A stretch of 63,775 nt of DNA from an uncultured Lentisphaeraceae bacterium (GCA_964482645.1 CAYZYQ010000004.1:1-63775), one strand, 5' to 3'; shown: positions 291-63,595, counted from the stretch's first letter. Program-made: numbers and translations. Notes: generated by a model not told the origin, from the sequence alone.

Positions 291-318
291 TTGACAAGAA
301 AAAAAAAATACATATAAT
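291..318 (+). promoter_or_regulatory. Sigma70-like promoter with A10 spacer tract (P1)
   Basis: TTGACA 291-296, A10 at 299-308, TATAAT 313-318; spacer 16 bp. Confidence 0.85.
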
Positions 319-371
319 TGATGACATCAAGGAACGTTGTATTTTCTGTCATTCATGAAAGGATCGGGAAG

Positions 372-2288
372 ATGATGAAGCGCACGTTTGGAGTCGCACT
401 TGCGGCTTTCTGTATCGGATGCCTGTCCGCCGCCCAGGGCGACGTGCTGGGCGAGGCGAAGTATCTCTGGGATTTCGACTACGACATTACGGGCGACGGG
501 AACTTACAGATTGAGGAAGTTCGCGACGCCCGTCACTGGGGGTCGACGAATCTCTCCGGCTACGCGGGGACTTGGCTGCCAACTAGCATCAAGACGAATG
601 GGATCGACAAAGTCGGCCCCCAGTGGCGGACGGGTACGGTCATTCAGCCGATGCGCGGTATTACGTCCGAAGGAACGTACCTCCACTTCGCCGTCGGCAC
701 GAACATCGTCGCAAACGCGGACGGCACGTGTGTGACGAACGTCAGCGGCTGCGGCATCGAATATAATACCAGCGCGATTACGGGCAGCGTGACCGTACTT
801 CTCCGGCTGCGCGTGGATGCGTTTGACGCCTGGTGCAACGCCGAGGATTTGATTTGGGTGGTGGACAACGGCGAGACGTGGAACAATGACGCCGAGAAAG
901 CCGCCGGGTCGAACTTCGGATTCAATGCGGACAAATATGTTAAAGGCCGGGGATTTCCCTCCGTCATGTTCGGTAAACATGCGTTGAACATGGGGACGAG
1001 CATCAAAACAAACGTGTGGTATGACATCGGCATTTCCCTGCGGAATACGGGGGATGGCGGTGCCGAAGCAGTCTTCATGATCCGCGATCCCGATATGACG
1101 AACGCCGTCAAGGGCCATGTTGAAGCCAAAACGAATATGACGAAGGGTGTGATTTTCGAGCGCAAGACCTGTGCTGCCGGAAGCGGGGCGTTTATGAATG
1201 AGGCGAAGGCCAATCGTTTCATCCGCATCGGCGGTGAGGATATCGGAATCGTCGGTTCGAAAGGCGGGAGCAACGCTCGAAAATGTTTTGCGGGCGACAT
1301 CCAACGCATCGTGATGTGGGATCGTGCGCTTACGACGAACGAACTCGTCGAGGCCGCGCTCCAGACGTCTTCGCTTTTCAAGATCGGGTACGAGGACGGC
1401 GCAAACGGCGAGTTCGGGCGCGTGGACGAAATCGTGAAACCCTATGACATCGACCGTGCGCCGTTTCGCGAAATGCCGCAGACGTTGTCGGCCGCCCATC
1501 CCGTGGCCGAACTCGCGTTCACGCCGTATTCAAGATCTGTCGCTGCGCTCGGGCACATGATGCGCATCAAGGCCGCGTCGGGCGCGGCGGGGACGACGGT
1601 GCTGCGCGTATCCGTCAACGGGCACGTGGCGGACACGCTGGTCTTGTCCGCCGGAAAGGAAAAATGGTTCTACGTGAAACCCGGTCGGCTCAACGCAACG
1701 GCCAACGCGATTCGGATTGAGCGTCTGGCCACGAGCACGGCAACGTCCTTTAACTTCGACGTCGTGGAGATGTCCGGGTCGTGGCAGGTCAGCGAGACAG
1801 GTAACGGCAATAACGATATGTCAGTGGAGGGCAGTGTCCCGAGGACGTTCTATGCGGGGGACTGGAACTTCCACGGGATGCAACGCGGTCTTGTCACGGG
1901 TGCACCGAAGGTGGCGATTCGTTTTCAGATGCCGGCCGCGTTGGCACTGCGCCATGCGTTCACGTATTCGGGCGTTTGCACGGCGGTGGATGCCGGTAGC
2001 TATTTGACGCTCACGAACAGTGTTGCGAACGGCGGTCTTGGCTATCCGTACAGGAAGTGGCCGTTGAACGTGGCGGTGAACGGTCGCGAATACGTGACGG
2101 GCGAATGTATCGGGGATGGTGAAGGTTGGTCGTTCACGATTCCAAAGGGCACGTTGAACGCCGGTTGGAACGAAGTCACGATGGAGCTGGCCGTACCCGC
2201 GGACAAGGCCGCGTGCTGGACGTGTTTTGATTACCTCCGTCTGGAAGTGGAGCCGAATCCGAGCCATACGTTGCTCATTTTCCGCTGA
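372..2288 (+). CDS. Secreted protein: LamG/ConA-like domain plus two probable PL4 domain III (CBM-like) modules; C-terminus HTLLIFR
   Basis: Signal peptide MKRTFGVALAAFCIGCLSAAQG; LamG-like FAGDIQRIVMWDRALT; FKIGYEDGANGEF and WQVSETGNGNNDM resemble the start of rhamnogalacturonan lyase domain III. Start moved from the track's TTG 318 to ATG 372 (GAAAGGA upstream). Confidence 0.65.
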   Translation: MMKRTFGVALAAFCIGCLSAAQGDVLGEAKYLWDFDYDITGDGNLQIEEVRDARHWGSTNLSGYAGTWLPTSIKTNGIDKVGPQWRTGTVIQPMRGITSEGTYLHFAVGTNIVANADGTCVTNVSGCGIEYNTSAITGSVTVLLRLRVDAFDAWCNAEDLIWVVDNGETWNNDAEKAAGSNFGFNADKYVKGRGFPSVMFGKHALNMGTSIKTNVWYDIGISLRNTGDGGAEAVFMIRDPDMTNAVKGHVEAKTNMTKGVIFERKTCAAGSGAFMNEAKANRFIRIGGEDIGIVGSKGGSNARKCFAGDIQRIVMWDRALTTNELVEAALQTSSLFKIGYEDGANGEFGRVDEIVKPYDIDRAPFREMPQTLSAAHPVAELAFTPYSRSVAALGHMMRIKAASGAAGTTVLRVSVNGHVADTLVLSAGKEKWFYVKPGRLNATANAIRIERLATSTATSFNFDVVEMSGSWQVSETGNGNNDMSVEGSVPRTFYAGDWNFHGMQRGLVTGAPKVAIRFQMPAALALRHAFTYSGVCTAVDAGSYLTLTNSVANGGLGYPYRKWPLNVAVNGREYVTGECIGDGEGWSFTIPKGTLNAGWNEVTMELAVPADKAACWTCFDYLRLEVEPNPSHTLLIFR

Positions 2289-2327
2289 CGCGACGACATC
2301 CGTTTGCCGTTTCGCAGGTGAAACTGC

Positions 2328-2399
2328 TATAATGGCGAACACAGGCAAAAGCGCCGACGGCAGACGGCCGCGCAACGGGTGTTGCGCGGCCGGTTGGCG
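2328..2399 (+). promoter_or_regulatory. Extended -10 (TGC-TATAAT) and 5' leader with a strong hairpin
   Basis: TATAAT 2328-2333; 12-bp perfect stem CGGCCGCGCAAC/GTTGCGCGGCCG at 2365-2392. Confidence 0.5.
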
Positions 2400-2431
2400 G
2401 ACGAAACGAGACGACTCGAAGGATTGACGTG

Positions 2432-5400
2432 ATGAAAAGATTTCTGTGGGCGAAAACGTGTCTGGCGGCCTGCCTGGCCGTCATGCTGGCGAGCGGTTTG
2501 AATGCGGCGAATCTGCTGTCGGACACGGTGTTCGCCCTGCGTGGCGTGAAGAGTCTGCCGGCGGGCTGGACGACGGAGATGCAGGGCGGCGCGACGTGCA
2601 TGGTGGACGCGGTTGGGCGTGCGCCGGGTGCGCTGTCCATCAAGATGACGGCGCCCAAGGGTGGCGAACGCGCGTGGAACATGGTGTCGCGCCGGGTGGT
2701 CGGCCTCAAGCCCAAAACGCCGTACACGGTCAGCGCGTGGGTGAAGACGGCGGACATGGACAAGGGGACGATGGCGTATCTTTCCTTCCACTGTTTCGCC
2801 AATTCGCGTCGTCTTGCGTCGAACGATTCGACCATGAAAGTGTCAGGGAACCACGAGTGGACGCGGATCGTCCACACGATTCTCGAACTGCCGGGCGGGA
2901 CGCATGACGTTCGTTTCGTCTTCTGCCTCTACGGTGGCGGCACGGCGTGGTTTGCCGAACCGCAGGTGGAAGAGGGGCGCGTGGCGACGGACTATGCGCC
3001 CGCGCCTGGAGACGTCGCCCGTGCGGAACGCCGCACCCGTCAGGCGCACGCGGCCGACGCATGGTTGGCGGCGCGGGGCCTTGAAAAGCCCGGCGCCCCG
3101 CGCGTGGCCGTGCTCGACCTGGGGTTGAAGCCTGGTCGTGGCGAATTTGGTTTCGTGACCGACCCCGCCGCGTTCGAGCGGCTGTTGTCCGACGACTTCC
3201 GCGTCGCGCGCGTTTCCGGCGACGACGTTGCGAACATGGGCATTCTTTCCCGCAAGGCGTTCGACTTGCTGGTCGTGCCGACGGGTTCGGCGTTTCCGAA
3301 AGATGCGGCGGAGACGTTGGTCGATTTCTTGCAGGACGGCGGCGCGTTGCTGACGTGCGGCGGCTATGCGTTCGACAAGCCCGTGTTGAAAGTGGACGGC
3401 GTGTGGAGCAGTCAAGAAGCGTTCGCGGGCGACATTCCCGCCGGCACGGATGCGCTCGCCCTGCCGTCGGCGGATGCGTGGTCGGCCGGGGCGGATTCCG
3501 CCGGCAAAACCGTTGTCTCCGGCGTGGTTGGCCCGAACGGCGAAAAGGGAGTTTGTCTGTCCACGCCTTCGCTCTCCCTTTGGAGCACGGCGGACATCCG
3601 TCTCGACGGAGTACTCAAGGGCAGCGGCGTGGTGAGTTTCCTCGCCAAGGGCGACGCGACGACGCCGAACGCCTGGTTTGAAATTGCCGAACGCGACGGT
3701 TCGCGCTGGCACAGCAAACTGGATTTGACGACGGAGTGGAAGGAGTACCGCCTGACGCCGATGCAGTTTACGTACTGGTCCGACAATCCCAGCATCGGGC
3801 GTGGTTTTCCGGGCGACTTCGTGCAGTTCGACAATGTCGCTCGTCTGAGCCTAGGCGTAGCGATCGACGTGGCGGCCGTCGGCCAGCCACACGCCGTGTC
3901 GATCTGCGCCGTGAAGAAGGGCGTGGATCCCCGTGGCGCGGAGCGGTGTGTGTCCCTCCCGCAGATCAACACGCGCACGGCGCACATTCGCGATGCGATC
4001 CATCCCGAAGCCAAACAGATCGGCGTGTTCGATCCGTCGTTCGACTTGCGGCACGTGGCGGAGATGCAGTCTGACGCGGCGATGGCCGGGATGCTGCCGA
4101 CGCGCAATCCGATTCGCGGGGCGTTCACCGGCTTGTCGGCGATTGCGCAGTTGGGGGTGAACGGACACGGCTTCGGGCCGAACCGCTGCTGCTGGCGTCC
4201 GGTACTTGTCTGCACGGATGCTGCTGGAAATCCGCGCGGATACGCCGGCGCCATCGTCCACCACTACACCGGGACGTTCGCGGGATCGTCCTGGGCGATT
4301 TTCGGCGTGGACAACGCGGATCTCTTCGATCCGTCGGACGCCTCCGTCCGCGTGTGGACGGTCGCGCTCGTGAAGGCGCTCGTTTCGCGTCGTTTCCTCG
4401 GCAACACGTCTGCCGAATACGCCTGCTATCGCGTGGGCGAGACGATGAAACTCGTGACGGACGTGGCGAACTTCGCGCCCACGTCCGCCGCGTACCGGGT
4501 GGTCTTCACGCTCGCCGATGAAAGTGGCCGCACGGTGGCCGTCGTCCCGCAGACCGTGACCGCAGGGGCCGGAAAGACATCCCGCGTTGTCGGCGAATGG
4601 GTCGTGCCGTCGTCAGCGCCGGATTTCCTGCGTCTGACGGCGGAACTCCAAACGTCCGACACCGGGCGGCCCGCGACCGTCATCGACCGTGAGGGCGGTG
4701 CGGTTGTCATTTGGAACGACCGCGTTCTCGCCGGCGGCTCGCAGGTGAAAAAGGAGGGCTTGCGTCTGACGATCGATGGCGAATCGCGGTTCTTCATGGG
4801 TTGCCAGACGTTCTGGGGGCAGCACAGGAGCGTGACGGCGAGTTCGCCTGAACGTTTCTATCAGGACTTCAAACAAATGCGGGCGTTCGGGTTGCGTTGG
4901 ACGCGCTGCTTCCTGCCGTTCCGGAACGAAAAGGAAAAACGCGATTCCGACGCGGTCGTGCAACTGGCGCAAAAGTTCGGGCTCGTCCTCTACCACACGC
5001 CCAACCTCTGGAACACACGGGACGCCGAGAAGCTTGCCGAACAGAATCGTACGATCGCTGAAATCGCCACGCGCTATCGCGCCGTGCCGGGGTTTGCGAT
5101 CGACATCTGCAACGAGCCGTTTCTGAAGGAACCGTCGTCTCGGTCGGCCACGGACGCGCAACGCCACTGGGCGAAGACGAACTACGATGCGGTGAAGCGC
5201 GTTCGCGCGGAGGTGCCGGTGTCTGTCGGCTGGAGCCAGGGTTGGGCCGGCGACACGTCGACAAAAGACCCGCAGGTGGCGTCGCTCGACCTTGACTTCA
5301 CGGATCGCCACTACTACGGCAATCCCACGAAGGTTGTGGAGCAGATGAAGGACGTCGATCTGCGAGTGCTCGGCAAGCCCGTGATCATCGGCGAATGCGG

Positions 5401-6124
5401 TGCGAAAAACCATCCGACGTTCAAGTCCAGCGACCCGTGGGGCATGGGCGACGATGACGCGGGCTATGACGAGCGTTTCCGCTATCTCGTGTCCCACGCA
5501 TTCGGTACGGGCGCGACGGCGCTGTTGTCGTGGCACTGGCGCGATCCGATGGAAGGGTTGTTTCCGTGCGGGCTCGTTCACGCGACGAACGTGCCGCGTC
5601 CGACGGCGCACCTCTTCGGGAAGATGGCGCGGACGTTCGGGCGGTTGACGCTTGTGGACAATCCGCCGGATGTGGTGGTGGTGTTGGACGAGGACGTTCG
5701 CCAACAGGCGACACCCGACCGTGTCCGCGTCCTCGATGCCGCGTATCGCGTGGACGAGGATCTGATGTGGTGGGGCGCGAACTGGAGCAAGTTGACGTCC
5801 TCCCAGACGGCAGCGCTGCCGCCAACGGTCAAACTCGTCATTCGGCCCGAGCAGATGCCGACGGATGCGGCGGCGCGGCGGGCGGAGATTGGTCGTCTGC
5901 TCAAGGCTCACGGTGCGTCCTTCACGCGGCGGGCGGAGGATCCGGACACGCTGGAGACGTTCAAGGTGCCGGGCGCGGGCGCGACGGGCTGGGTGTTCTG
6001 GAATGGCGGCAAGACATCCGTGGACGTTGTGCGCGGCGCGGGGCGCCTGACCATCGGCCCTCGGCGCGTGGGTTATCTGCAAATCGGCGTCGACGGATGC
6101 GTCCAGGTTCAGGAGGAACTGTAA
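2432..6124 (+). CDS. Multidomain secreted glycoside hydrolase, clan GH-A (GH5/GH42-like), with N-terminal CBM-like modules
   Basis: Signal peptide; CBM4/9-like N-terminus; C-terminal TIM barrel with DICNEPF (acid/base), TDRHYY and IIGECG (nucleophile). Confidence 0.7.
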   Translation: MKRFLWAKTCLAACLAVMLASGLNAANLLSDTVFALRGVKSLPAGWTTEMQGGATCMVDAVGRAPGALSIKMTAPKGGERAWNMVSRRVVGLKPKTPYTVSAWVKTADMDKGTMAYLSFHCFANSRRLASNDSTMKVSGNHEWTRIVHTILELPGGTHDVRFVFCLYGGGTAWFAEPQVEEGRVATDYAPAPGDVARAERRTRQAHAADAWLAARGLEKPGAPRVAVLDLGLKPGRGEFGFVTDPAAFERLLSDDFRVARVSGDDVANMGILSRKAFDLLVVPTGSAFPKDAAETLVDFLQDGGALLTCGGYAFDKPVLKVDGVWSSQEAFAGDIPAGTDALALPSADAWSAGADSAGKTVVSGVVGPNGEKGVCLSTPSLSLWSTADIRLDGVLKGSGVVSFLAKGDATTPNAWFEIAERDGSRWHSKLDLTTEWKEYRLTPMQFTYWSDNPSIGRGFPGDFVQFDNVARLSLGVAIDVAAVGQPHAVSICAVKKGVDPRGAERCVSLPQINTRTAHIRDAIHPEAKQIGVFDPSFDLRHVAEMQSDAAMAGMLPTRNPIRGAFTGLSAIAQLGVNGHGFGPNRCCWRPVLVCTDAAGNPRGYAGAIVHHYTGTFAGSSWAIFGVDNADLFDPSDASVRVWTVALVKALVSRRFLGNTSAEYACYRVGETMKLVTDVANFAPTSAAYRVVFTLADESGRTVAVVPQTVTAGAGKTSRVVGEWVVPSSAPDFLRLTAELQTSDTGRPATVIDREGGAVVIWNDRVLAGGSQVKKEGLRLTIDGESRFFMGCQTFWGQHRSVTASSPERFYQDFKQMRAFGLRWTRCFLPFRNEKEKRDSDAVVQLAQKFGLVLYHTPNLWNTRDAEKLAEQNRTIAEIATRYRAVPGFAIDICNEPFLKEPSSRSATDAQRHWAKTNYDAVKRVRAEVPVSVGWSQGWAGDTSTKDPQVASLDLDFTDRHYYGNPTKVVEQMKDVDLRVLGKPVIIGECGAKNHPTFKSSDPWGMGDDDAGYDERFRYLVSHAFGTGATALLSWHWRDPMEGLFPCGLVHATNVPRPTAHLFGKMARTFGRLTLVDNPPDVVVVLDEDVRQQATPDRVRVLDAAYRVDEDLMWWGANWSKLTSSQTAALPPTVKLVIRPEQMPTDAAARRAEIGRLLKAHGASFTRRAEDPDTLETFKVPGAGATGWVFWNGGKTSVDVVRGAGRLTIGPRRVGYLQIGVDGCVQVQEEL

Positions 6125-11406: not shown

Positions 11407-11434
11407 TTGACTGAAAAAAAAAATACATTATAAT
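11407..11434 (+). promoter_or_regulatory. Sigma70-like promoter with A10 spacer tract (P2)
   Basis: TTGACT 11407-11412, A10 at 11414-11423, TATAAT 11429-11434; spacer 16 bp. Confidence 0.85.
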
Positions 11435-11502: not shown

Positions 11503-14500
11503 ATGGGAAATCTGCTTGCACGGGCTGGCTTTCTGGCCGCCGCCGTTGTCCTGGCGACGCCGGGCGCATTCGCCGGCAATGTCGTCGTGGACGGGACGCG
11601 GACGATTTCGGAGGAGATCGTCTCGGTTTCCGCCGAGCGCGAACTGGGCGACGCCTCGGTCGCGAACGTCGTGCTGGCGAATGGCGGCGGCGTGTCGTTC
11701 ACGACGAACATGACTCTTTCCAAGACGTATTCGCTCGACGGCACCGGCGTCGTGGCGGTGGCCGGGGGAAGGCGGGTTGATGTGTCGGGTGTGCGTCTAG
11801 CCGTCGGTGCGGTCGGGCACGTCCTCGTCAAGCGCGGCGCGGGCACGCTCGCCCTGGGAGGCGTCGGCAAGGCGGCCGGGAAGCGGACGCGGTTCATCGT
11901 GGAGGAAGGGACGATTTCATGCAACGGCGACTTCTGGGGCGGGCATTCGACGGCGGACACGAACGTGACGATCGACGTCCGCCACGGCGCGACGTACAGC
12001 CACGGCAATTCGCACGGCGTGGTGGGGCCTGTCGAATTGACCGGCGCCACGTTCGTGAGCGCCTCGACCGGCCCTGGCTTCTGGTCTGACGCCGCGCTGT
12101 GCGGCGGCGTGACCGCCCACGCGCACGAGACGACGAGCGTCGTGCGCATGGGCTACAAGGGCTTTCTCGGACACGTCGACTACACGAACTGCGTCTTCAA
12201 CGTGGAGGACGGCGCGCGCCTCCTGCTGGACGCCACGCTGCGCGACGGCATGAACAGGGGCGCCACGAAGGCGGTCGCCTGCCGTCTGACGAAACGCGGC
12301 GCGGGCGATCTCGTGATTGCCAAGCCGGGCGAATGGACGGGCGGCACGTTCCTCGAGGGCGGCACGGTGTCCGTTGCCGTCGCGGGCGCGTTCGGCACGG
12401 GCCCCGTCGTCGTCGCGGGCGACGTCAAGCTGTACGTCGCCGCGGGCGTGACGGTCGACTTGACGAACCTGCGCGTGGATGGGACGCGCGTGCTGACGCT
12501 CGCGGGCGATGGCTGTGTGACGCTTCCCGAAACGCTTCCGGCAGGACTGTCCGTCGAAGGGCGTACGGGCGGAATCGCGTCTGTCGAACCGTACAGGGAC
12601 GGCGTTCTGCACCTGACCGGCGGCATCGTGACGGTGGACGTGCCGGCGGGCGAGACGCTGACGGTGACGGCGATGGAATCCGCCGCGGATCCGGCCGGGT
12701 TCGAGGCGGCGCGGCCTGACGTCGTCAAGACCGGTGGCGGAACGCTTGAACTGCCCGCCGGGCTTGCGGCGGCCTATGGACGGCTCAACGTCGCGGAGGG
12801 ATTCGTGAGCGTGGCCGACGAGAGTTCATTTGGCGCGAACGTCGTCACGCTGTCGGATGGCGCCGGGCTGCGCGTCCGGTCGAGCTTCACGCAGACGCGG
12901 ATCCAGATCTCCTGCGCAGGCGCGGCGACGCTCGACGTCCCGGACGGTGTCACGTTCGGCGTCACGAAGGGGCTTTTCAAGTGTCCGACAAGTGCGATCA
13001 CGAAGATTGGCGGCGGCACGTGGCAGCCCGACACGTTCATCAAGGAAAAGGAGGGCAACACAACCTATCTCAATGCCGGTGCGCGGTGGGTCGTCCACGA
13101 GGGCCGTCTCAAGTTTGCCTCGGGCGATATGTTCTGCGGCTACGGCGAAAAGCCGGCGGTCGTGCTGGAGGCGCACGAGGGCGCGGTCATTGAACTGGGG
13201 TACGCGAACGCCCACACGCCCATCGGCGACGTCGTGCTGCGCGGCGGCGTCATGCGCGCCGGGTACGGGCAGCTTGATCAGGAGGCGTTGCCGCTGGAGG
13301 GCGGAAAAATCTGGAAGGGGTTCGGCCTTAACGGCACGATTACTGTCCTGCCGTCGTCGGACGGACGCCCTTCGCGCCTTGAGGCACGTGCCGTCCATGC
13401 CGGGCACTACAACAAGACGCAGACTGGTTTCCCGACGGTGTTCGACGTGCGCGAGGGCGCTACGTTCGAGGTGGATGCGATGATCTGTCCCGGATTCGGG
13501 CCTTACGCCACGGTGCCTCCGGAAACCGGGAGCGGCGTGACGAAGATCGGCGCGGGCAGGGTGCGTTTCCTGAAGCCGCTCGCCATCACCGGACTCTTCG
13601 CGGTCGAGGCGGGCGTGGCGGAGCTTGGCCCGGGCGTCGTGATTTCCGAGAAGGCGACGGTGCGCGTGGGGGCCAACGCGGAACTCGTGCTGGGCGACAA
13701 GGCGCGGATTTCATCGACGAACGATGCGCTGGCCGGACTTTGCGCGTCGGCGGACCTCTGGCTCGACGCTTCGCGTCTGGTGGCGACGAACGGCGAAACG
13801 GTGGCGCGTGTTCCGAACCTCGGTACGGCGGGCGGTGCGTTCGTCAGGCCGACGGGCGATCTTGGCAGCGCTTTCGCGCCGACGTTCACCGTCTCCGGCG
13901 TCGGCGGACGCGGCTCGCTTTCGTTTGACGGCAAGAGTGCGCTCGTGACGGACGTCTACACGAACTACGGTGCGGCGGCGAGCGTGTTCATCGTCTCGCG
14001 CTGGACGAGCTGGGCGAATGCCGGCGGCCAGGGCAAGTGGGGCGGGCCGTTCTCGATGATGGCCCGTGCGCCGACGGCGCTGTCAAGCAATTTGGGCGAC
14101 GACAACCATGCCCATGGAGGCCTCTCCTTCCAGCACGGCGGGGATACGATCGACACGCTCTACACGTTCGGCGGCCTTTCGCAGGCGACAATCTCCAGAG
14201 TCGGCTTTGAGGTGGGACATTCATATGTAACCTGTTCGTGGCGCGACGCGGAAACCAGGAAGGGCGCGACCGCCGTGTGGCTGGACGGCGGGGCCTATCA
14301 GTGCGTGACGGGGAGTCTGAACACGGTGCGCCCGACGTGCGAGATCGATCGCGTCTGCGTGGGTGGTCGTTTGAGGATGGGACGTCCGCAGATCTTCCCC
14401 GATTCTGCCGCCAATCGAATGTACATCGGCGAGATCGGCGAAGTCCTCGTCTTCTCGCGAATGCTGACGGAGGCGGAACGCACGGCGATCGAGACGTATC

Positions 14501-16044: not shown

Positions 16045-16071
16045 TTGACAAAGAAAAAAAAACACTATAAT
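16045..16071 (+). promoter_or_regulatory. Sigma70-like promoter with A9 spacer tract (P3)
   Basis: TTGACA 16045-16050, A9 at 16054-16062, TATAAT 16066-16071; spacer 15 bp. Confidence 0.85.
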
Positions 16072-19100: not shown

Positions 19101-19860
19101 CGGCGACCAGTCCGATTACGTGAAGAACGGTTACGTGGGGATTGACGGCGAAACGCATAGGTGGAATGACAGACTGACCGATCGAGCGTTCCACGTCGTG
19201 TCGCTCGCGACGTCGCAGCCGATTAAAATGCGGACGATCGCCCTCGACCGCAGCTGCCGCGCGGGCGGAAGCCGCCAGGGCGAGCTGATCGCGTTTTCGA
19301 AGAAACTATCGCCGGCGCGGCGCAAGTACGTGCAGGCGTACCTGATGTGGAAGTGGTTCGGCGAGGGGACGCAGCCCATGCTTGACCACAGCTTGTCGGC
19401 CGTCTCGCTGTGCGCGGGTGCGGTGGCGACGTTCCCGTCGTATTGGGCGCTTCGGACGGCGACGGTGTCCGGCACGGGTACGTTGTCGGCCGGATTGGTT
19501 GCGGACGTGGAGGCGCTGGCGCCGGCGGGGACGTTGGCGATTGGCGGCGACCTCTCGTTGGACGCGACGGCGGAACTTGTCTTCGACTTCGAGTCGCCGG
19601 CGTCCTACGACGTCGTGACGGTGGACGGTACGTTTACGGCGACTGCGGATACGACGATCGTGCTCAACATCGGAAAGGGCGCGGACAACTGTTCGGGCGA
19701 TTTCCCGATTCTGCGGGCGACGGCGTTCGCGGGGACGCCTCCGTCCGACTGGACGCGCGTTGTCAGCAACCAGTCGAATCGTTCGGTCGCGCTCGTCCTG
19801 CAGAACGGCGTCTTGTGTCTGCGTCTCACGCCGAAAGGTACGGTCATCTTCATCCGCTAG
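16135..19860 (+). CDS. Large secreted protein with three tandem LamG-like domains and passenger-type repeats; C-terminus GTVIFIR
   Basis: Signal peptide; LVKAGGGALTV and VTKSGAGSLRV; three (L/F)DA...E...L...R...L.(R/K/W)KW modules; GGAG RBS before ATG 16135. Confidence 0.75.
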   Translation: MNEMVGWTTARVVVLCAALCGAVRAEEGATGLTANWLPTAAGTHDWWDAANWDGGVVPTNRGDTARFDAVAIEGNQTIALPKGNEFRRFTLGTVFGHTNQVVKSPARSSNGTTIRQMSVADPTGFKGAWDQADAKANWIAEPADSFVPLFAQVVGTYMPQFTVASNRAEIGEVIGGDGLVKAGGGALTVRGVLPSLRANTRLQVEAGTMALAFEDEIPTAVVPGAYLHLDAARADTFTLQAGDDGRTYVSEWRDCDGAEIAATKHPSVALPFLSSVTVVRGFPLVDFGASKPSNDAMNNLTYWTEKVGPCGSLRFPRTTKVREVFVVFEDTQPSNTSCFVVGDDKSYHFHRANSDTSGHKLLDASFCDPGLKNNLAMVDGVSCSFECQRDWTRLAVVSVVSTNDLCLSSLCNDRNTIRYGGARIAEVLIYTNNLTQAERDWNHFVLRRKWTPGKLPSDDLRELRMANGTTVDVADGLSVTVDQLSVKAGATVTKSGAGSLRVHAMSEDGFGLQVNGGTVDFVPPDVPVTDDAPAEDPQIWFDASCAASLVATNLANGAGGVSICRWNDRRPEQTSIFAATRNGDTTFPFLVTDAANGLSVLDFGDGWISEWGAWGVASGTSARFDINRHTTAYDGFVVIRPKMPNGYDKNARTCLNPAFFGTKWQSFTRWGGGAAVAGYADANVISALWEFDGVPQDARTSPAVSTNAFTVVSFSSSTPCNAGDHIANDRDICCGGVQIGELILYDRRLTSTERKTTQAYLMKKWKAKEHPALAETVELESLTYADGVEAKIETDRHVVVSSLTASGPFHVTGGGSVSVKGLSDTLTALVLDGGAFSVASDDAFGDALFHFDASVPETLECTVAVRDGETVTNVTKWLDVRNNGVYAKASRQKPVATADPTLRTVETRNGRTMPVLDFGDVNVNVDTCQTSAGMNIVRPNWNGHVQEAHVVYSDAYDSNNGYAQRFIFADSEVYPCHRGENGQLFAAYGGDQSDYVKNGYVGIDGETHRWNDRLTDRAFHVVSLATSQPIKMRTIALDRSCRAGGSRQGELIAFSKKLSPARRKYVQAYLMWKWFGEGTQPMLDHSLSAVSLCAGAVATFPSYWALRTATVSGTGTLSAGLVADVEALAPAGTLAIGGDLSLDATAELVFDFESPASYDVVTVDGTFTATADTTIVLNIGKGADNCSGDFPILRATAFAGTPPSDWTRVVSNQSNRSVALVLQNGVLCLRLTPKGTVIFIR

Positions 19861-24714: not shown

Positions 24715-24731
24715 GGGGGGGGGGGGGGGGG
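24715..24731. repeat. G17 homopolymer
   Basis: 17 consecutive G between the fba terminator and the rnfE promoter. Confidence 0.85.
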
Positions 24732-34720: not shown

Positions 34721-34766
34721 CACATTCCCGTTTCAGTCGAATGACTCGTTTGGTAGAATGGACGCC

Positions 34767-35769: not shown

Positions 35770-35875
35770 CAGAACAGCAAAAGCGGCTTCAATTTTTGGT
35801 CTTGTTTAATCATGTCAACGCGGATACTCCTATCCGAATGAACTCGAAGGAATGTCGTAAGTGAAAGGCGTAGGA

Positions 35876-48381: not shown

Positions 48382-48447
48382 ATATTGCTAAACGGATTTA
48401 GCAATTCACATGAAACCAGTGCGATTGCTAAATCCGTTTAGCAATAT
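48382..48447. promoter_or_regulatory. Nested palindrome pair (probable operators)
   Basis: Perfect 24-bp IR (48382-48405 / 48424-48447); each arm is itself ATTGCTAAA-N4-TTTAGCAAT. Confidence 0.7.
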
Positions 48448-48534: not shown

Positions 48535-48562
48535 TTGACGTAGAAAAAAAAAACCGTATAAT
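48535..48562 (+). promoter_or_regulatory. Sigma70-like promoter with A10 spacer tract (P4)
   Basis: TTGACG 48535-48540, A10 at 48544-48553, TATAAT 48557-48562; spacer 16 bp. Confidence 0.85.
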
Positions 48563-48628: not shown

Positions 48629-51600
48629 ATGAAAACGACACTGAAGACGGGCGTGTTGGGCGCGGCGGTCTGCTGCGCGGCGGCGCTTTGGGGTGAAACT
48701 CTGACATGGACGGGCGCGGCTGGCGACAACGACTGGACGACGCCCGCGAACTGGTCGTCGTCGGCTCTTCCCACCTCTGACGCCACGGTCGTCTTCACGA
48801 ACAACGTCACCGTCACGCCGTCGGCCGATTTCGCCGGCGTCCTCTACGTTACGAACGCCACGGTGACGCTCGTCGTGGACGATGACGCAACGGCCGTGCG
48901 GGCGTTCTCCACCGCGCTGGACATCGGCGCGAAACTCGTGAAGGACGGCGCGGGCGCGTTGACCCTCCGCGCCGCGCCCGGCTACTATCCGGGCGGCATT
49001 CAGGTGAACGCGGGTTCGGTGACGTTCGCTGGCAACGGCGTCTTCGCCGCGCCCGGAATGTTCGGGCCGCTGTCCGTCGCGTCCGGCGCCGCCGTCACGG
49101 TTGCCGACAGTCCTGCCGCCGACCGGCATGGCGTCGTCGTCCGCGCGGAGAAGTGGGAGAAGAGTTTTGCCGACGCATGGCAGGACTTTACAAATTGCGT
49201 CGTTACGGTGACGGCGTTTGCGGACACCTGGGATGCGTTGGGCGCGTCCGGTACGGAGCGCGACCGTTGGATCCATCGGCCAGATGGCGTGTCCACGTTC
49301 CACTTGAAGGGCAACCAGACGGTTGCCGAGCCGTTCTACGCGACAAATACGTGCTACATCGCCCTCTCCCGTGCGCTCATCGCCATCCCGGCGTCCGCCC
49401 GGGTGGCGCCGCGCATTTCCGTGGACGACTACGGATTGCTCATCTGCGACGGCGTGAACTGGTCGGCGATTTATAACAACGGAAGCGTATGGCTGGGGAC
49501 GCGGCGGCTGGCGGCGGGTTGGCACGCATTGGACACGGCATACTACGAACATGCCGGCGATCACAGGCTGGACGTCCGTCTGACATCTCCGTTTTTGCCG
49601 AAGCACACGTACCTTGGCCCGAACCTCCTCTGGCGTGGCGTCTGCTTCACGGATCTCAAATTGGACGCGGACGCGACGCTCACGGTGGCGGACGGACAGG
49701 CCGTCGCGTTCGTCTGCGGGAACGGCACGTCCGTCGCGGGCAAAGTCGCGGGCGGCGCGGATGCCGTCTTCGCGGTCATGGGCGGGAAACTGGCGGCCGA
49801 CGCGGCGGCGTTCGCGTCCTTTGCGGGCAACGTCGAAGTCGCGGCCTACGGTGCGCTGGCGCTGGCGAACGTGCCGGCCGATCCGTCGTTCACGTGCACG
49901 GGCGCGGGGACGTTCGTGGCGGCGAACGAGTTGTCATTCGATTCGGCATTTACGGGGACGGTCGACGTGCCGGCGGGGACCGTCTACACGAACGAACTGG
50001 GCGATGCGGTCTCCTTCATGGGGGCGGGAACGCTTGTGACGGACACGTTGGTCGGCACGGCCGAATTCGACGGCACGGTCGTGCTGCGTGAGCGCACGGC
50101 GGGCGACATGACGGACGTGGCGGGCTTCGCGCCGCAGACCCTGCGCCTGGACGATGGAGCGTCGGTTTCGATTGCGGGAGGCGCTGCATGGAACAGTTTT
50201 GAAAAGCCGCTGCCGGACTGGAACGCGGATCGGGACGCCTGGAATCTGATCACCTATCAGGGATTCAAACGCGACTATCTGAACGAGGTCGGCATGTACG
50301 TGACGAACAATGGCGTCCTTGTGGTGACGGACGATACGGGCTGCCAGCGGAACACCGCCGTCTACACGAACCGTGCGTTCGCCGCCGAGGACATCTGGCG
50401 CATCCGCTTCACGTTCTCGTCCACCCTGCTCAACCGCTGGCCGAATGAAGTCCGCGCCGAGGCGTTCTCCTTCTTCTTGGCGAAGAGTCCGGCGGCCCAC
50501 AATCACAACACCCAGGGGGCGTATCCCGGCGACGCCTATGGGTTCAACATCTATCAGTATCGTGCTGGGGCTCAGGGGTTGACGTGGATTTTGAACGGAA
50601 ACACGGCGGAGGGCCCCGACTATAAGGAGGGCGCGATGGGGATTTCGCTTCTAAAGCCAATCGACATGGACGTGTCCTACCGCGACGGGATGCTGACGGT
50701 TGTGATGACGCAGGGCGCGGCCACGTTCTCGTCTCGGTGCGACATCTCGGAAGCGTTCATGGACGGGACGTGCCGCTATTTCGGCTTCGGCGGTGGTACG
50801 GGTTGGTGGGCCAATGCGGGTGAAATTGAAGGCGCCGGTGGTACATCCGCCGCCGTCTACTGCTACCAGACGATCAGCAACTTCACGGGTTCTGTGGTGG
50901 ACGTGTCCGCCGAGGCGGGACCTGATGTTTCGTTCACGACGGGCGACTGGATGCTAGTGAACGACATGACGCTCCTTCCTGGCGGTACGAACGGTGTGGA
51001 GACGGTGTCGTGGTCGTCTGGAAGTGTCGGTACGAATGGAACGGCCATCTGCCAGACGGCGTTTTCGCCACACCAGGCATTCTGGCTCGACTTGGACGAG
51101 CGCCTGGTGGAAGAGGTCAAGGGATGGGCGGAAGGATTGTCGATCTTCTTCCGTCCATCGGCATCGTTGGAGGGCGTGGGTGGCGGTTATGCCGGGGCGG
51201 GCAATCCGTCGCTTACGTTCCAGCATTACTTTTGGAACAACAAGTTTTTCTGGGATGAAAACGGAAGCTACTCGGCACGTGATCAACATTCAAGCGACAA
51301 CGCCACGCCGAAGTCGCTGGGAACGAACCACATTCGTATTTTCTATGACGGCGCGGGACGGTTCACGGCCACGGTGTCGCGGGGAACGACCACGAAGACG
51401 TTCAAGAAGGACTACGCGAAGATTCTGACGTGGGACAAGTTCTACATGGGTCTCAAGTCGGCCACCTCCTCCTGGGGGGCGTATTTGAAGACGCACGTGC
51501 TCGATCCCGTTGTGACGCAGCCTGTGCCGGGGACGGCGGTCGTGGACACGGTGCTGGAGGTCGTGGCGGACGCGACGGCCACGGTGGCCGTGGGTGGTTG

Positions 51601-52051
51601 GACGACGAACGACGTGGCGTCTGTTGGCTTTGCGACGACGACGCTTCAGGACGGCGGCGTGTTGAACGTGGTGTCCGCCGTGTCGAGCCGCCCGGCGGTC
51701 GTGGCATTCCGCGATGTGACGGTGAACGGCGCGACGAAGGTCGTGGCGGCGGACGGCAACGCCGTGGAGCTGGCGAACGTCGTGGGACCGTCGGCATCGG
51801 ACGTGCTGACGGTGGTAGGGAACTGGACGGCGGTGGACGGGCGTGTCACGTTCCGCGTGGACGCGGCGGCGCTGCCGACGGGCGGGCGCGTGCTGGCGGA
51901 CTTCTCGCGGGCGTCGTACGTCGGCGCGGGCAAACCGGAATTCGTCTGCACGGGGCTGAACGGCGAAGACCTGTCGGCTCGCTGGCGGGTGTCCGCGGTG
52001 AACGACGTCGTCCGCCTTACGTCTCTCGGCTTCCTGCTCATCTTCCGTTGA
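48629..52051 (+). CDS. Large secreted adhesin-like protein: passenger repeat, PA14 domain, two L-type-lectin-like domains; C-terminus GFLLIFR
   Basis: Signal peptide; TWTGAAGDNDWTTPANWS; LVKDGAGALTL; PA14-like SVDDYG...LAAGWHALDTAYYEHAG; EAFSFFLA...RYFGFGGGTG; AAGGAGA RBS. Confidence 0.72.
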   Translation: MKTTLKTGVLGAAVCCAAALWGETLTWTGAAGDNDWTTPANWSSSALPTSDATVVFTNNVTVTPSADFAGVLYVTNATVTLVVDDDATAVRAFSTALDIGAKLVKDGAGALTLRAAPGYYPGGIQVNAGSVTFAGNGVFAAPGMFGPLSVASGAAVTVADSPAADRHGVVVRAEKWEKSFADAWQDFTNCVVTVTAFADTWDALGASGTERDRWIHRPDGVSTFHLKGNQTVAEPFYATNTCYIALSRALIAIPASARVAPRISVDDYGLLICDGVNWSAIYNNGSVWLGTRRLAAGWHALDTAYYEHAGDHRLDVRLTSPFLPKHTYLGPNLLWRGVCFTDLKLDADATLTVADGQAVAFVCGNGTSVAGKVAGGADAVFAVMGGKLAADAAAFASFAGNVEVAAYGALALANVPADPSFTCTGAGTFVAANELSFDSAFTGTVDVPAGTVYTNELGDAVSFMGAGTLVTDTLVGTAEFDGTVVLRERTAGDMTDVAGFAPQTLRLDDGASVSIAGGAAWNSFEKPLPDWNADRDAWNLITYQGFKRDYLNEVGMYVTNNGVLVVTDDTGCQRNTAVYTNRAFAAEDIWRIRFTFSSTLLNRWPNEVRAEAFSFFLAKSPAAHNHNTQGAYPGDAYGFNIYQYRAGAQGLTWILNGNTAEGPDYKEGAMGISLLKPIDMDVSYRDGMLTVVMTQGAATFSSRCDISEAFMDGTCRYFGFGGGTGWWANAGEIEGAGGTSAAVYCYQTISNFTGSVVDVSAEAGPDVSFTTGDWMLVNDMTLLPGGTNGVETVSWSSGSVGTNGTAICQTAFSPHQAFWLDLDERLVEEVKGWAEGLSIFFRPSASLEGVGGGYAGAGNPSLTFQHYFWNNKFFWDENGSYSARDQHSSDNATPKSLGTNHIRIFYDGAGRFTATVSRGTTTKTFKKDYAKILTWDKFYMGLKSATSSWGAYLKTHVLDPVVTQPVPGTAVVDTVLEVVADATATVAVGGWTTNDVASVGFATTTLQDGGVLNVVSAVSSRPAVVAFRDVTVNGATKVVAADGNAVELANVVGPSASDVLTVVGNWTAVDGRVTFRVDAAALPTGGRVLADFSRASYVGAGKPEFVCTGLNGEDLSARWRVSAVNDVVRLTSLGFLLIFR

Positions 52052-52084
52052 CGCGGGGCGGCGGGGAATGGTAGAATGACGGGC

Positions 52085-53896
52085 ATGGAACGGCGACTGA
52101 AAATTCCCTACGGTCTCAAGGACTTCAAGATCATCCGCGACGAGGGCTACTACTACGTCGACAAGACGGCCTACATCCGACGGATGGAGGAACGCGACCG
52201 GTTCGTCTTCTTCGTGCGCCCGCGCCGCATGGGCAAGTCCCTCTTCGTCGAGACGCTGCGCGCCTACTACGACATCAACGAGAAGGCGAACTTCCGGAAG
52301 CTCTTCGGCGGCCTCGACATCGGCGAGAACCCAACGGAGAACGCAAACCGGTACCAAATACTCGCGCTCGACTTCTCGCTGGTCGATAGAGGTATCGGGA
52401 TGACGCTTGAGGATCGTTTCGAGAGCTACCTCTCCACCCGCCTCGACGGCTTCCTCCTCGCGTACGGATCCGCCTACGAGGACGGCCTGATCGACAAGCT
52501 TGCAGACCGGAACGCGGCGGCGAAATTCAACGAGATCGCCATGCGGGCGCGTCTCGCCGGGCATGAAATCTACCTGGTCATCGACGAGTACGACAACTTC
52601 ACGAACGCGATGCTGCGCGACGAGGCGAACGCGGACTACCGCGCCGTCACGCACGGGGCGGGGTTCTACCGTAACTGGTTTAAGGCGTTCAAGGAGGCGT
52701 GCTCGCGGATCTTCATGACGGGCGTCTCGCCCGTGACGATGGACGACCTGACGAGCGGCTTCAACATCGCCGCCAACCTCACGCAGGACGAGGCGTTCAA
52801 CGCGATGGCCGGCTTCTCCGAGGCCGAGGTCGTGAAGATGTACGCGGATTTCAGGGGAACGGGGCGCTTCACGGCGGGCGACCCGGCGGCGATCGTGAAG
52901 GCGATCAAGCCGTGGTACGACGGCTACTGCTTCTCGACGGCCTGCATCGGGAAGGAGTGCGTGTTCAACAGCGACATGGCGCTCTACTACCTGAAGGCGC
53001 TCGTCGCGAAGGGCGAGCCGCCGGAGAACATGGTGGACGCCAACATCAAGACGGACTACCAGAAGCTGAAAATCATCGCCGACATCCAGCGCCGGCAATG
53101 TGGCGGTGTTAGCGTCGCAACGCAGACCTCCGAGACCGGCGCCGGATCTGCCGCCGAAACCGCCATCGCCGAGGGCGTCCTGCCCGTCACGGAACAACTC
53201 GCCGCGACGGGCGAGATCTCGTTCGACCTCGTCGAGAGCTTCCCCGCCGACAAGATCTCCGACCTCGCGAACTTCCACTCGCTCTTCCACTACTACGGCA
53301 TCGTCTCGATGCAGGACCGGCGCGAAGGGCAGACGGTCTTCAAGATCCCGAACGTCTGCGTCCGCCGCCAGCTCTTCGACTACCTGCGCGATGCCTACCG
53401 CCGGACGCGGACGCCCGACTGGATGGCGTGGTCGCGCCTCGCCTCCGCGTTCGCCTACCGGGGCGAGTTCGAGCCGTTCCTGAAACGCCTCGCGCAGGAC
53501 TACGCGGAGACGACGCCCGTGCGCGGCGGCCTCCAGGGCGAGATCCGCGTGCAGGGCTACATGCAGGCGGAGTTCGGGCACCTGAAGTTCTACCTCCTCG
53601 CGCCGGAGATGGAGCTGTCGCGCGGGTTCTGCGACTTCTGCCTCTTCCCCGAGCGCGTCCACTACGGCGACGTGCTGCACAGCTACATCGTCGAACTCAA
53701 GTACGCGAAGGCCGACGCCTCGGACGCGGAGATGGCCGCGAAGGTGGCGGAGGCGAAGGCGCAGCTCGCGAAGTACCGTGCCGACCGTGCCGTTCCGTCG
53801 CTCGCGCACGGCACGACGCTCCACCAGATCGTCTTCGTCTTCCGGGGCGCGGAACTGCACACGCTCGACGAAATCGCCTGCGAGCAGATGTCGTAG
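52085..53896 (+). CDS. AAA-ATPase-like protein with C-terminal PD-(D/E)xK nuclease domain
   Basis: IPYGLKDF, YYVDKT, RPRRMGKSL, IDEYDNF, FMTGVSP, WYDGYCF, GFCDF...IVELKY; probable leaderless ATG 52085 after TAGAAT. Confidence 0.88.
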   Translation: MERRLKIPYGLKDFKIIRDEGYYYVDKTAYIRRMEERDRFVFFVRPRRMGKSLFVETLRAYYDINEKANFRKLFGGLDIGENPTENANRYQILALDFSLVDRGIGMTLEDRFESYLSTRLDGFLLAYGSAYEDGLIDKLADRNAAAKFNEIAMRARLAGHEIYLVIDEYDNFTNAMLRDEANADYRAVTHGAGFYRNWFKAFKEACSRIFMTGVSPVTMDDLTSGFNIAANLTQDEAFNAMAGFSEAEVVKMYADFRGTGRFTAGDPAAIVKAIKPWYDGYCFSTACIGKECVFNSDMALYYLKALVAKGEPPENMVDANIKTDYQKLKIIADIQRRQCGGVSVATQTSETGAGSAAETAIAEGVLPVTEQLAATGEISFDLVESFPADKISDLANFHSLFHYYGIVSMQDRREGQTVFKIPNVCVRRQLFDYLRDAYRRTRTPDWMAWSRLASAFAYRGEFEPFLKRLAQDYAETTPVRGGLQGEIRVQGYMQAEFGHLKFYLLAPEMELSRGFCDFCLFPERVHYGDVLHSYIVELKYAKADASDAEMAAKVAEAKAQLAKYRADRAVPSLAHGTTLHQIVFVFRGAELHTLDEIACEQMS

Positions 53897-59601: not shown

Positions 59602-59612
59602 GGAAACTCCGA

Positions 59613-61642: not shown

Positions 61643-61801
61643 TCTTTTCGGATCGTGTGTCGCTTTACTCTTGCTTGAATGGACGTGAAATTGATATAAT
61701 CACATAGATTTCAACGCCGCCTTTTTCCGTGTATACGCATGGTTTGGATGTCGTGGCGATGGGATGTACGTAGTTTTGTTCATCAATCAAGGAAGTTGCA
61801 C

Positions 61802-63406
61802 ATGAAGAAGGCGTGGATGGGTTTGTCCGTCGCTCTGTCTGGTTTTGTGTCGTGGGCGCAGACGGTCGCCCCGACGGCGTTGAAAACGGTTGAAACGGCC
61901 CCGGAGGCGGCGCAGGCGGGCAAGGCCGTCGCAAAGACGGTCGAGGCGACGAGCGATTGGCTGGCGCAGTTTACGGCGTTTGTGGACAAGATTGACGGTT
62001 ACGTGTGGGGCATTCCGCTGATTGCCTCCATTCTGGTGACGGGGTTGCTGCTCACGTGCATTCTGCGTTTCCGTCATCTCTTCAACTTGAAGAACGCATT
62101 TCACTATATGTTCCACACGGAGGAGGGAACGTCGGGCGAAGTGAGTTCGTTCGGGGCGCTTTGCACGGCGTTGTCGGCCACGATCGGCACGGGCAACATC
62201 GTGGGCGTGGCGACGGCGATTGGCACGGGCGGGCCGGGGGCTCTCTTCTGGATGGAAGTGGCGGCGTTCTTCGGCATGGCGACGAAATACGCGGAAGGTC
62301 TGCTGGCGGTGAAGTACCGTGAAATCACGCCCGACGGACGTGTGCTGGGCGGCCCGTTCTACTACATCGAGAAGGGGCTTGGCTGCCGTTGGAAATGGCT
62401 GGCCGTCGCGTTTGCGGTCTTCGGTGTACTGGCGGGCATTCTCGGCATCGGCACGATTACGCAGATCCATGGCATTACATCGGCCGTGCAGCGGTTCTTC
62501 GACCCGAATTTCGATCCGGCCAACATGGCCACGGGGTTGCAGTTGTTTGGTACGACGTATTCCATTCCCGTTGTCATCGCCGGCCTGGTGGTGACGGTCT
62601 GCGTGGCGCTCGTCGTGATCGGCGGCCTTCAGCGCATCGCCAAAGTGTCCACGGTGATCGTGCCGTTCATGGCGATTTTCTACGTGGCGACGATTGCGTT
62701 CCTCCTGTTGGGCAATCTCTCCAAGATTACGGCCGCGCTGGAATTGATCGTCCGGGCGGCGTTCAACCCCGCGGCGTTCACGGGCGGCATGGTGGGAACG
62801 ATTTTCATCGCCATGCAGAAGGGGGTCGCGCGTGGTATCTTCTCGAACGAGGCGGGTCTGGGGTCTGCGCCAATCGCGGCGGCGGCGGCGAAGACGAACG
62901 AGCCGGCGCGGCAGGGTCTTGTGTGCATGACGGGCACGTTCATCGATACGATCGTCATCTGCACGATGACGGGTCTTGCGATTGTCGTGACGGGTGCCTG
63001 GGAGCCGTCGCTCGGTCTCAAGGGCGTGGATATCACGATCGAAGCGTTCAGCCGTGGGTTGGCGTTCATCGGGCCGAACGCGGCGGTTGTTTCGTCCTTC
63101 TTCCTCATGGTGTCGCTCACGTTCTTTGCGTTCACGACGATTCTCGGCTGGGACTACTATTCTGAAAAGTGCCTTGAATACCTCGTGGGCACGGAACGGC
63201 GTGGGATCGTCAAAATCTACCGTCTGCTCTACGTGGCCGTCGTGTTCATGGGGCCGTATCTGACGGTTTCGGTGGTTTGGGGCATGGCGGACGTCTTCAA
63301 CGGCCTCATGGCGTTCCCGAACCTCGTCGCGCTCGTGCTGCTCTCGCCAGTCGTCATGCGGACGACCCGCGACTTCCTGTCACGTCAGGACAAGCAAAAG
63401 CGTTAA
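61802..63406 (+). CDS. Sodium:alanine/glycine symporter (AGCS family)
   Basis: ALSATIGTGNIVGVA, GGPGALFWM, GGPFYYI, GVARGIFSNEAGLGSAPIAAA, FIDTIVIC, GLMAFPNL. Confidence 0.93.
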   Translation: MKKAWMGLSVALSGFVSWAQTVAPTALKTVETAPEAAQAGKAVAKTVEATSDWLAQFTAFVDKIDGYVWGIPLIASILVTGLLLTCILRFRHLFNLKNAFHYMFHTEEGTSGEVSSFGALCTALSATIGTGNIVGVATAIGTGGPGALFWMEVAAFFGMATKYAEGLLAVKYREITPDGRVLGGPFYYIEKGLGCRWKWLAVAFAVFGVLAGILGIGTITQIHGITSAVQRFFDPNFDPANMATGLQLFGTTYSIPVVIAGLVVTVCVALVVIGGLQRIAKVSTVIVPFMAIFYVATIAFLLLGNLSKITAALELIVRAAFNPAAFTGGMVGTIFIAMQKGVARGIFSNEAGLGSAPIAAAAAKTNEPARQGLVCMTGTFIDTIVICTMTGLAIVVTGAWEPSLGLKGVDITIEAFSRGLAFIGPNAAVVSSFFLMVSLTFFAFTTILGWDYYSEKCLEYLVGTERRGIVKIYRLLYVAVVFMGPYLTVSVVWGMADVFNGLMAFPNLVALVLLSPVVMRTTRDFLSRQDKQKR

Positions 63407-63442
63407 TCATCGCGTTCGGAAATAGTCATTTCTGACGGACGG

Positions 63443-63475
63443 AAAGGCCATGCGGACACGCATGGCCTTTTTGTT
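63443..63475 (+). terminator. Intrinsic terminator after the symporter gene
   Basis: AAAGGCCATGCG-GACA-CGCATGGCCTTT then TTGTTT. Confidence 0.85.
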
Positions 63476-63567
63476 TGTTGTGAGTAGGTTCGTTCTGTCG
63501 CGGCGAAGGCGCACGTGACGGTAAATGTGCTTTCATTCCGAGGAAATGACAAAAGGTGAGTTCGTGC

Positions 63568-63595
63568 TTGCAAATAAAAAAAAAACAACTATAAT
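63568..63595 (+). promoter_or_regulatory. Sigma70-like promoter with A10 spacer tract (P5)
   Basis: TTGCAA 63568-63573, A10 at 63576-63585, TATAAT 63590-63595; spacer 16 bp. Confidence 0.8.

Follow-up and report, generated by a model that had tools for sequence, protein, structure and literature searches.

Does a run of adenines lying between the -35 and -10 hexamers of several promoters in one bacterial genome serve as a separate switch for each of the secreted proteins encoded behind them? The question is raised by a 63.8-kb stretch of DNA (the window, by which we mean the whole stretch that was analyzed) from an uncultured Lentisphaeraceae bacterium, a gut member of the Lentisphaerota, with a GC content of 60.8%. 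The window contains five sites, P1 to P5, that appear to be near-consensus promoters for the housekeeping (sigma-70-type) sigma factor. Across these sites and their counterparts in other samples, 9-12 of the 15-18 base pairs (bp) of the predicted spacer belong to a single A run. The reading that we favor is that slippage of the repeat controls promoter spacing, a mechanism known from Mycoplasma vlp and meningococcal porA, and on the sequence comparisons described below we give it a probability of roughly 0.6. The five sites had been claimed in a first-pass annotation of this DNA, and their positions, sequences and spacers of 16, 16, 15, 16 and 16 bp were all reproduced on re-reading:

291-318, plus strand: P1, TTGACA-ag-A10-taca-TATAAT(tg), 16-bp spacer, A10 at 299-308
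11407-11434, plus strand: P2, TTGACT-g-A10-tacat-TATAAT(gg), 16-bp spacer, A10 at 11414-11423
16045-16071, plus strand: P3, TTGACA-aag-A9-cac-TATAAT(tg), 15-bp spacer, A9 at 16054-16062
48535-48562, plus strand: P4, TTGACG-tag-A10-ccg-TATAAT(tg), 16-bp spacer, A10 at 48544-48553
63568-63595, plus strand: P5, TTGCAA-at-A10-caac-TATAAT(tg), 16-bp spacer, A10 at 63576-63585

The tracts of P1-P5 are the only A runs of seven or more in the whole window, and T runs of eight or more are absent from it. Base composition predicts 0.019 A runs of nine or more per strand, against the five observed, and the pattern A9-N3-5-TATAAT occurs at five distinct sites in the window and at none in 100 dinucleotide-preserving shuffles. 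If the hexamers are assigned by consensus, then A9 or A10 occupies 9-10 of the 15-16 spacer bp at each site. All five promoters lie on the sense strand, 53-69 nucleotides (nt) 5' of the ATG of a reading frame with a signal-peptide-like N-terminus. Alignment of the five regions recovers a common core that consists only of TTGAC, the tract, and TATAAT followed by T/G-G-A, and both the flanks and the 53-69-nt leaders are mutually unrelated. This restriction to the core indicates a shared promoter design and not a duplicated segment, and a duplicated repeat element was rejected on the same ground as the source of the likeness among the sites in the window.

Four of the seven best TTGACA/TATAAT matches in the window are poly-A promoters. 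None of the five has a TGn extended -10 element, which is present at 7 of the 11 other TATAAT sites in the window, so P1-P5 should rely on contact with the -35 hexamer and hence on spacing. The tRNA-Leu and tRNA-Glu(UUC) promoters, to which a 17-bp spacer without a long A run had been ascribed, do have that form, as does a further promoter at 23562.

The genes that follow these promoters encode large secreted proteins:

372-2288, plus strand: gene behind P1, 638 amino acids, secreted, CBM-like domain, ends PNPSHTLLIFR
2432-6124, plus strand: second gene of the P1 unit, 1230 amino acids, GH5 cellulase-family / CBM4_9, without the tail
11503-15969, plus strand: gene behind P2, 1488 amino acids, secreted, autotransporter-associated beta-strand repeat (PATR), ends GLYIILR
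16135-19860, plus strand: gene behind P3, 1241 amino acids, secreted, ends GTVIFIR
48629-52051, plus strand: gene behind P4, 1140 amino acids, secreted, weak beta-strand-repeat match, ends GFLLIFR
63665-63775, plus strand: first 37 codons of the gene behind P5, signal-peptide-like N-terminus, remainder beyond the window

A scan of all open reading frames (ORFs) of at least 150 codons finds exactly four with a C-terminus of the form G/H-x-hhhh-R, and these are the genes behind P1-P4. The poly-A promoters thus stand before all four tailed ORFs, before no other complete gene, and before the fifth secreted gene at the window edge, which is the distribution that the first-pass annotation had described. 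The consensus of the tail is P-x-P-x-G-T, four to five hydrophobic residues and a final R, and it is kept in orthologues down to 24% identity. Neither the whole proteins nor their isolated C-termini gave a Pfam or NCBIfam match for the tail at E values up to 10. The tail may be a very short cousin of PEP-CTERM, used by a sorting route that would be undescribed. The term "adhesin-like", which had been applied to the whole set, fits some of the genes and fails for others, since the P1 gene is CBM-like and heads an operon with a GH5 glycoside hydrolase, a pairing that is conserved at orthologous loci. Judging from their domains, the products are better described as glycan-binding or glycan-degrading surface proteins together with giant beta-helix-type proteins.

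If spacing is under control of the tracts, then their lengths should be read across strains. We took the majority tract length per sample from assembled contigs of public runs, which drop minor variants, after alignment to the window. The comparison covers about 15 metagenome assemblies of the same species, with three samples represented by ENA assemblies. The number of A residues at each locus is as follows:

X24 (identical to the window): P1 10, P2 10, P3 9, P4 10, P5 10
X1: P1 9, P2 10, P3 10, P4 10, P5 9
X3 and X4 alike: P1 9, P2 10, P3 10
X5 and X6 alike: P1 9, P2 10, P3 10, with P4 9 in X5 only
X7: P2 10, P3 10
X9: P2 9, P3 10, P4 9, P5 10
X12: P2 9, P3 9, P4 9, P5 9
X27: P1 10, P2 9, P3 10, P4 7, P5 10
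X29: P2 10, P3 9, P4 9, P5 9
X30 and X31 alike: P1 11, P2 10, P3 10
X13 (metatranscriptome): P1 10, P2 10, P3 10, P4 10, P5 10
X14: P1 10, P2 gene absent, P3 9, P4 9, P5 9
X18: P1 9, P2 9, P3 gene absent
ENA sample L117: P1 10, P2 10
ENA sample L118: P1 12, P2 10
ENA sample L119: P1 10, P2 10
Contig L001: P4 9, possibly from one of the coded runs

These lengths mark the tracts as hot spots of mutation. Each locus varies independently of the others, and none is fixed at one length. Among 57 firm calls there are 32 of A10, 22 of A9 and one each of A7, A11 and A12. Invariant lengths would have spoken against a switch, and the idea survived this comparison, as every locus has at least two lengths among the roughly 15 assemblies (9, 10, 11 and 12 at P1; 9 and 10 at P2, P3 and P5; 7, 9 and 10 at P4). 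At P2, A9 occurs in X9, X12, X27 and X18 and A10 in 11 other assemblies. P3 has A9 in X24, X12, X29 and X14 and A10, with its 16-bp spacer, in eight other assemblies. At P4, the majority length is A9 (X5, X9, X12, X29, X14 and L001), with A7 in X27 and A10 in X24, X1 and X13, and P5 is divided evenly between A9 (X1, X12, X29, X14) and A10 (X24, X9, X27, X13). At least nine different five-locus combinations are present among 12 samples.

This variation stands out from a background that is otherwise almost constant. The strains are about 99.8% identical, and the tracts account for nearly all indels between them; in X1, X9 and X29 nearly every indel relative to the window sits at a tract. A 5.2-kb contig common to X24 and X29 has no substitutions, and its sole difference is the P4 tract. 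In a control region of 20 kb between the promoter groups, the only indel in X1 is an 8-nt deletion in a run of 17 G residues, and over all samples compared there the indels were limited to this run and a single additional site.

The loci also differ between samples in ways other than tract length. With the P2 gene absent in X14 and the P3 gene absent in X18, the repertoire varies in gene content too. The X18 assembly runs from the end of the P2 gene (15969) to position 159, which lies upstream of P1. In X13, X30/31 and ENA contig L117, the P2 gene is broken into two ORFs by the loss of one nucleotide at 12043, outside any repeat. Assemblies break at 63724, within the P5 gene.

The same promoter design is found in other Lentisphaerota. 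We scanned 185,579 species genomes (596 Gb) with the motif TTGAC-N1-5-A8-N3-6-TATAAT-K-GA, and the window's own species was not among the results. The scan returned 93 stretches with a median GC content of 38%; the window alone has four matches. Only one genome gave several matches, a metagenome-assembled genome (MAG) of 65% GC that is itself labeled "uncultured Lentisphaeraceae bacterium". Its three strict matches are these:

MAG promoter 1: TTGACTGG-A10-CAGA-TATAATTGA, before a large secreted protein ending GTMLILR
MAG promoter 2: TTGACGAG-A9-CGAA-TATAATGGA, before a large secreted protein ending GLSILIR
MAG promoter 3: TTGACGAG-A10-CAGA-TATAATTGA, before a large secreted protein ending GTLLMLR

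One of the three genes is the orthologue of the P1 gene, with 68% identity. All three strict matches precede tailed secreted proteins, and in the window and in this related MAG, where the point was checked, the motif does not stand before housekeeping genes, a second outcome that could have counted against a switch and did not. The MAG holds one exception to the design, a further A9 tract before TAAAAT with nine non-A spacer letters and an 18-bp spacer.

A protein search added 19 further relatives of the P1 gene, all of which end in P-x-P-x-G-T-hhhh-R, down to 24% identity. The promoters of its orthologues are as follows:

Orthologue with 85% identity to the first gene of the window: TTGACAAG-A10-TACA-TATAATTGA
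Orthologue with 75% identity: TTGACAGG-A9-TGAA-TATAAT in three samples of one study, with A11 in a fourth
Orthologue with 73% identity (an NCBI MAG): promoter identical to that of the 75% orthologue, A9
Orthologues with 67-68% identity, in four lineages: A10
Orthologues with 47, 42 and 38% identity: no A tract

On one of the 67% contigs the next secreted gene likewise has such a promoter, TTGACTG-A10-TAGGA-TATAATTG. In about 12 complete promoters of the strict form, one to three non-A spacer letters to the left of the tract and three to five to the right always sum to six, so A9, A10 and A11 correspond to 15, 16 and 17 bp in every one of them. The design is confined to one clade, where orthologous and non-orthologous loci alike have kept it although their flanks have diverged to saturation. 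That a tract should stay uninterrupted in GC-rich genomes while its flanks diverge indicates that it is maintained by selection.

Scans of JGI metagenomes found no relative of the first gene, and the motif gave AT-rich background only. Five JGI contigs (L129, L145, L155, L172 and L189) belong to an organism of 32% GC that has an identical TTGACAAAAAAAAAATTGACATATAATTGA at several places on long contigs; this is another repeated A-run promoter, and it is unrelated to the poly-A promoters described here. In one related lineage (contig L120), a Y-family (IMS/DinB-type) DNA polymerase gene at 565-1752 lies directly upstream of a poly-A promoter, probably by coincidence.

How might these tracts act? 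The activity of sigma-70-type promoters falls steeply as the spacer departs from its optimum, and homopolymers of nine or more slip at high rates. Slipped-strand mispairing at replication would add or remove one A, and the change would alter how far apart the -35 and -10 hexamers lie and how they are rotated relative to each other, and thereby the binding of RNA polymerase. Transcription of each gene (or short operon) would be set individually, heritably and reversibly, and the outcome would be a population with many combinations of surface proteins. The features of repeat-driven phase variation that are seen in these data are a repeat between -35 and -10, an over-representation tied to secreted genes, and hypervariability among strains. 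We infer from the sequence comparison that P1-P5 are the active promoters, that a 1-bp change would alter expression, and that switching within populations would be frequent and selected.

The observed spacers of 13, 15, 16, 17 and 18 bp bracket the 17 bp of the housekeeping promoters in the window. The first-pass annotation had taken 17 bp (A11) as the "on" state and had supposed that the genes mostly sit in a low one. This part of the idea finds no support in the calls, because A11 is rare (1 of 57 calls, and once in a related species), whereas A10 with 16 bp is the mode and A9 comes second. The predominance of A10 extends from this species to most of the sampled relatives, apart from one lineage with mostly A9. 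We would therefore take A10 (16 bp) as the expressed state, A9 (15 bp) as low and A7 (13 bp) as off. One possibility is that the tighter helical twist of an A tract could make 16 bp equivalent to about 16.5 bp of ordinary DNA.

The RNA data come from X13, the sole metatranscriptome, in which all five tracts are A10 and the contigs are short and fragmented with adaptor-joined ends. The P2, P4 and P5 genes have a contig depth several times that of the genes upstream, although contig depth is a poor measure of expression, and one low-depth contig runs through P4. These depths are weak evidence for A10 as the expressed state, with which they are compatible.

Several observations weigh against slippage control of the spacers. 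At about eight non-orthologous loci the A residues are without exception on the sense strand, in most cases with a G just before them. Pure variation in length would require neither regularity, and both suggest that the sequence of the tract has a specific role or that the promoters have a common origin. Within one strain lineage (X1 and X3-X7), P1-P3 have the same lengths in different samples and studies, so a consensus state can be stable. Unbroken long contigs span P2-P4 in deep samples, and RNA fragments in X13 cover the P3 promoter itself, probably through read-through from the P2 gene. Finally, any A10 run would be polymorphic, and polymorphism alone is no proof of an evolved switch.

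The alternative that survives best is a fixed regulon signature, which we regard as unlikely but as a serious competitor. The A tract would then be a structural or recognition element, rigid and with a narrow groove, that strengthens the promoter or binds a dedicated factor and so marks a single secretion or sorting regulon, and slippage within it would be nearly neutral or mildly harmful. Such an element would suit the strict orientation of the tract, the G that precedes it in 11 of 12 promoters, the stability of consensus lengths within one strain lineage, the prevalence of A10 here and in most relatives, and the tie between the motif and one protein class. What it accommodates poorly is the length distribution: A9 makes up 38% of the calls and is the majority length at P4 and in a second species, a pattern that purifying selection for one fixed length would not produce, and the lengths range from 7 to 12. 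Beyond the hexamers and the tract there is no conserved sequence, and the tract floats by 1-2 bp within a spacer whose total length is held, so spacing as the constrained variable fits better than a fixed operator.

A second alternative, which we consider very improbable, is that the A run has no role of its own and belongs to some other kind of element, namely an invertible promoter, a terminator on the minus strand (where the tract reads as a T run) or a mobile promoter cassette. In favor of such an element are P1, whose core (approximately 287-320) is a dispersed multi-copy sequence at which assemblies break, and another multi-copy sequence 5' of it that X18 joins to the end of the P2 gene; against it, the flanks of the five sites are unrelated. 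The invertible promoter was rejected because no inverted repeat brackets any of P1-P5 within 600 nt, and the terminator because there is neither a GC-rich hairpin ahead of the T run nor a gene on the minus strand that would read into it. The least probable alternative, an artefact of sequencing or assembly that conceals constant tracts, has in its favor that homopolymers are error-prone and that the comparison was made on assembled contigs, but it is opposed by three technical replicate pairs (two runs per sample) that agree at P1-P3 down to the rare A11 call, by differences of two to three bases (A7, A12, A9 versus A11), by the use of two assemblers at contig depths of 11-185x, and by the consistency of calls within strain lineages.

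The depth of the P1 core is 7-10x that of single-copy sequence, and that of the region upstream (56-276) is 2-4x. In the assemblies the core has several different continuations on both sides, and the De Bruijn contigs of many runs begin exactly at TTGAC. This depth and these varied continuations indicate that the genome holds several further copies of the promoter before other genes.

If slippage control of the spacers is correct, then a broader picture can be proposed for this clade of gut Lentisphaerota, although we put it forward tentatively and at somewhat less than even odds. Each substrate of the tail-sorting route would have a poly-A-spacer promoter that mutates on its own, with probably many more such promoters in a genome than five, and slippage would generate combinatorial surface diversity. 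The PVC group would thereby gain its first contingency-locus repertoire, a repeat-based counterpart, in a gut commensal, of the inverton system of Bacteroides. If the switching is real, the lineage would be hedging its display of surface proteins, both those that bind or degrade glycans and those of the giant beta-helix type, with phages, host immunity or changing substrates as the presumed pressure. A search rule of TTGAC, one to three letters, A9-12, three to five letters and TATAAT would then find the whole repertoire and the tail-sorting substrates in metagenomes, and tract lengths in public metagenomes would be a readable record of which genes were dialed up in each host. The main value of the finding lies in this, that the variable surface repertoire of an uncultured gut lineage, and with it the tail substrates, can be read from metagenomes. 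It also calls for caution in expression and pangenome studies that are based on MAGs, where the state of a gene, on or off, may hang on a single base in a homopolymer call.

The window has several other features that vary between samples. The run of 17 G residues at 24715-24731 may be a second, different hypervariable tract. It lies 41 nt upstream of a TGGTATAAT box (24772) that precedes an Rnf-Nqr subunit gene (24785-25462), and it overlaps the first codons of a divergent ORF of 397 amino acids. The run is 8 nt shorter in X1. In X12 it is one longer and contains an interruption, and X9 and X14 have assembly breaks at this place. An ORF at 52076-53896, just after the P4 gene, has AAA-ATPase_like and PDDEXK_9 domains; its depth is 20-50x that of single-copy sequence in every run, and its RNA depth is very high. 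X1 and X9 lack it here, with 52112 joined to 53837, and the high depth and these absences indicate a multi-copy insertion. About 90 nt upstream of P4, between this promoter and a divergent AAA_14/DUF4143 gene, two perfect 24-nt inverted-repeat arms lie 18 nt apart (48382-48447). The region from about 33300 to 36000 has 3-4x depth, with many joints, skips and back-steps between samples that are concentrated at about 34400-34730; it contains small ORFs without a Pfam match, and neither an Rfam match nor a tandem array was found in it. The only Rfam matches in the whole window are three tRNAs.

Among known systems, the closest analogue in design is vlp of Mycoplasma hyorhinis. Each vlp gene is described as having a homopolymeric A tract in its promoter, where indels switch the genes independently and produce surface mosaics (PMC10502178, citing Citti and Wise 1995; PMC4198240). 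Both systems consist of a family of surface genes in which each gene would have its own transcript and its own promoter A tract. The vlp products are unrelated lipoproteins of a wall-less, AT-rich Mollicute, whereas the tracts considered here, A9-A12, are known from sequence alone and belong to a diderm of the PVC group with 61-66% GC and another kind of C-terminal tail. The vlp tracts are also longer, at about 17-20 A. Membership in vlp by homology was rejected, the flanks being mutually unrelated and the products being proteins of 600-1500 amino acids with PATR or CBM-like domains.

The closest system in geometry is the poly-G tract of porA. There, G11, G10 and G9 reportedly give spacers of 17, 16 and 15 bp with high, medium and no expression (van der Ende et al. 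1995). Spacers of 15-17 bp are also found here, but the commonest are 16 and 15 bp and not 17. A poly-A tract acts at nspA of Neisseria meningitidis, where isogenic mutants with 6A have high and those with 5A low mRNA (PMC6389960). In these two cases the homopolymer is located between -35 and -10 or immediately upstream of -10, and expression changes stepwise with its length. Both porA and nspA are single genes of a pathogen that encode unrelated proteins, in contrast to a design that is predicted here to extend across a family.

Invertible promoters of capsule and surface-protein loci in gut Bacteroidales vary many surface structures independently and heritably (PMC10403206, PMC8748976). The ecological logic would be the same, but the mechanism differs, as these promoters are switched by site-specific inversion between inverted repeats, none of which flank P1-P5. 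The tail can be compared with PEP-CTERM, with which it shares a proline motif, a hydrophobic stretch and an arginine at the C-terminus of secreted proteins. Its four to five hydrophobic residues and single R are too short to span a membrane. Membership in PEP-CTERM, which is defined by a PEP motif, a membrane-spanning helix and a basic cluster, was rejected for this short hydrophobic run and for want of an NCBIfam or Pfam match.

A literature search found no description of repeat-based phase variation in Lentisphaerota, in agreement with the first-pass annotation, whose author did not recognize such a description in this lineage, and no report of repeat-driven promoter switching in other GC-rich, uncultured gut commensals. 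Such switching is textbook material in Neisseria, Haemophilus, Bordetella, Mycoplasma, Campylobacter and Helicobacter. The poly-A promoters of this Lentisphaeraceae bacterium would represent a known kind of mechanism that is unrelated to vlp, porA and nspA and that is deployed in a new lineage across a whole gene family.

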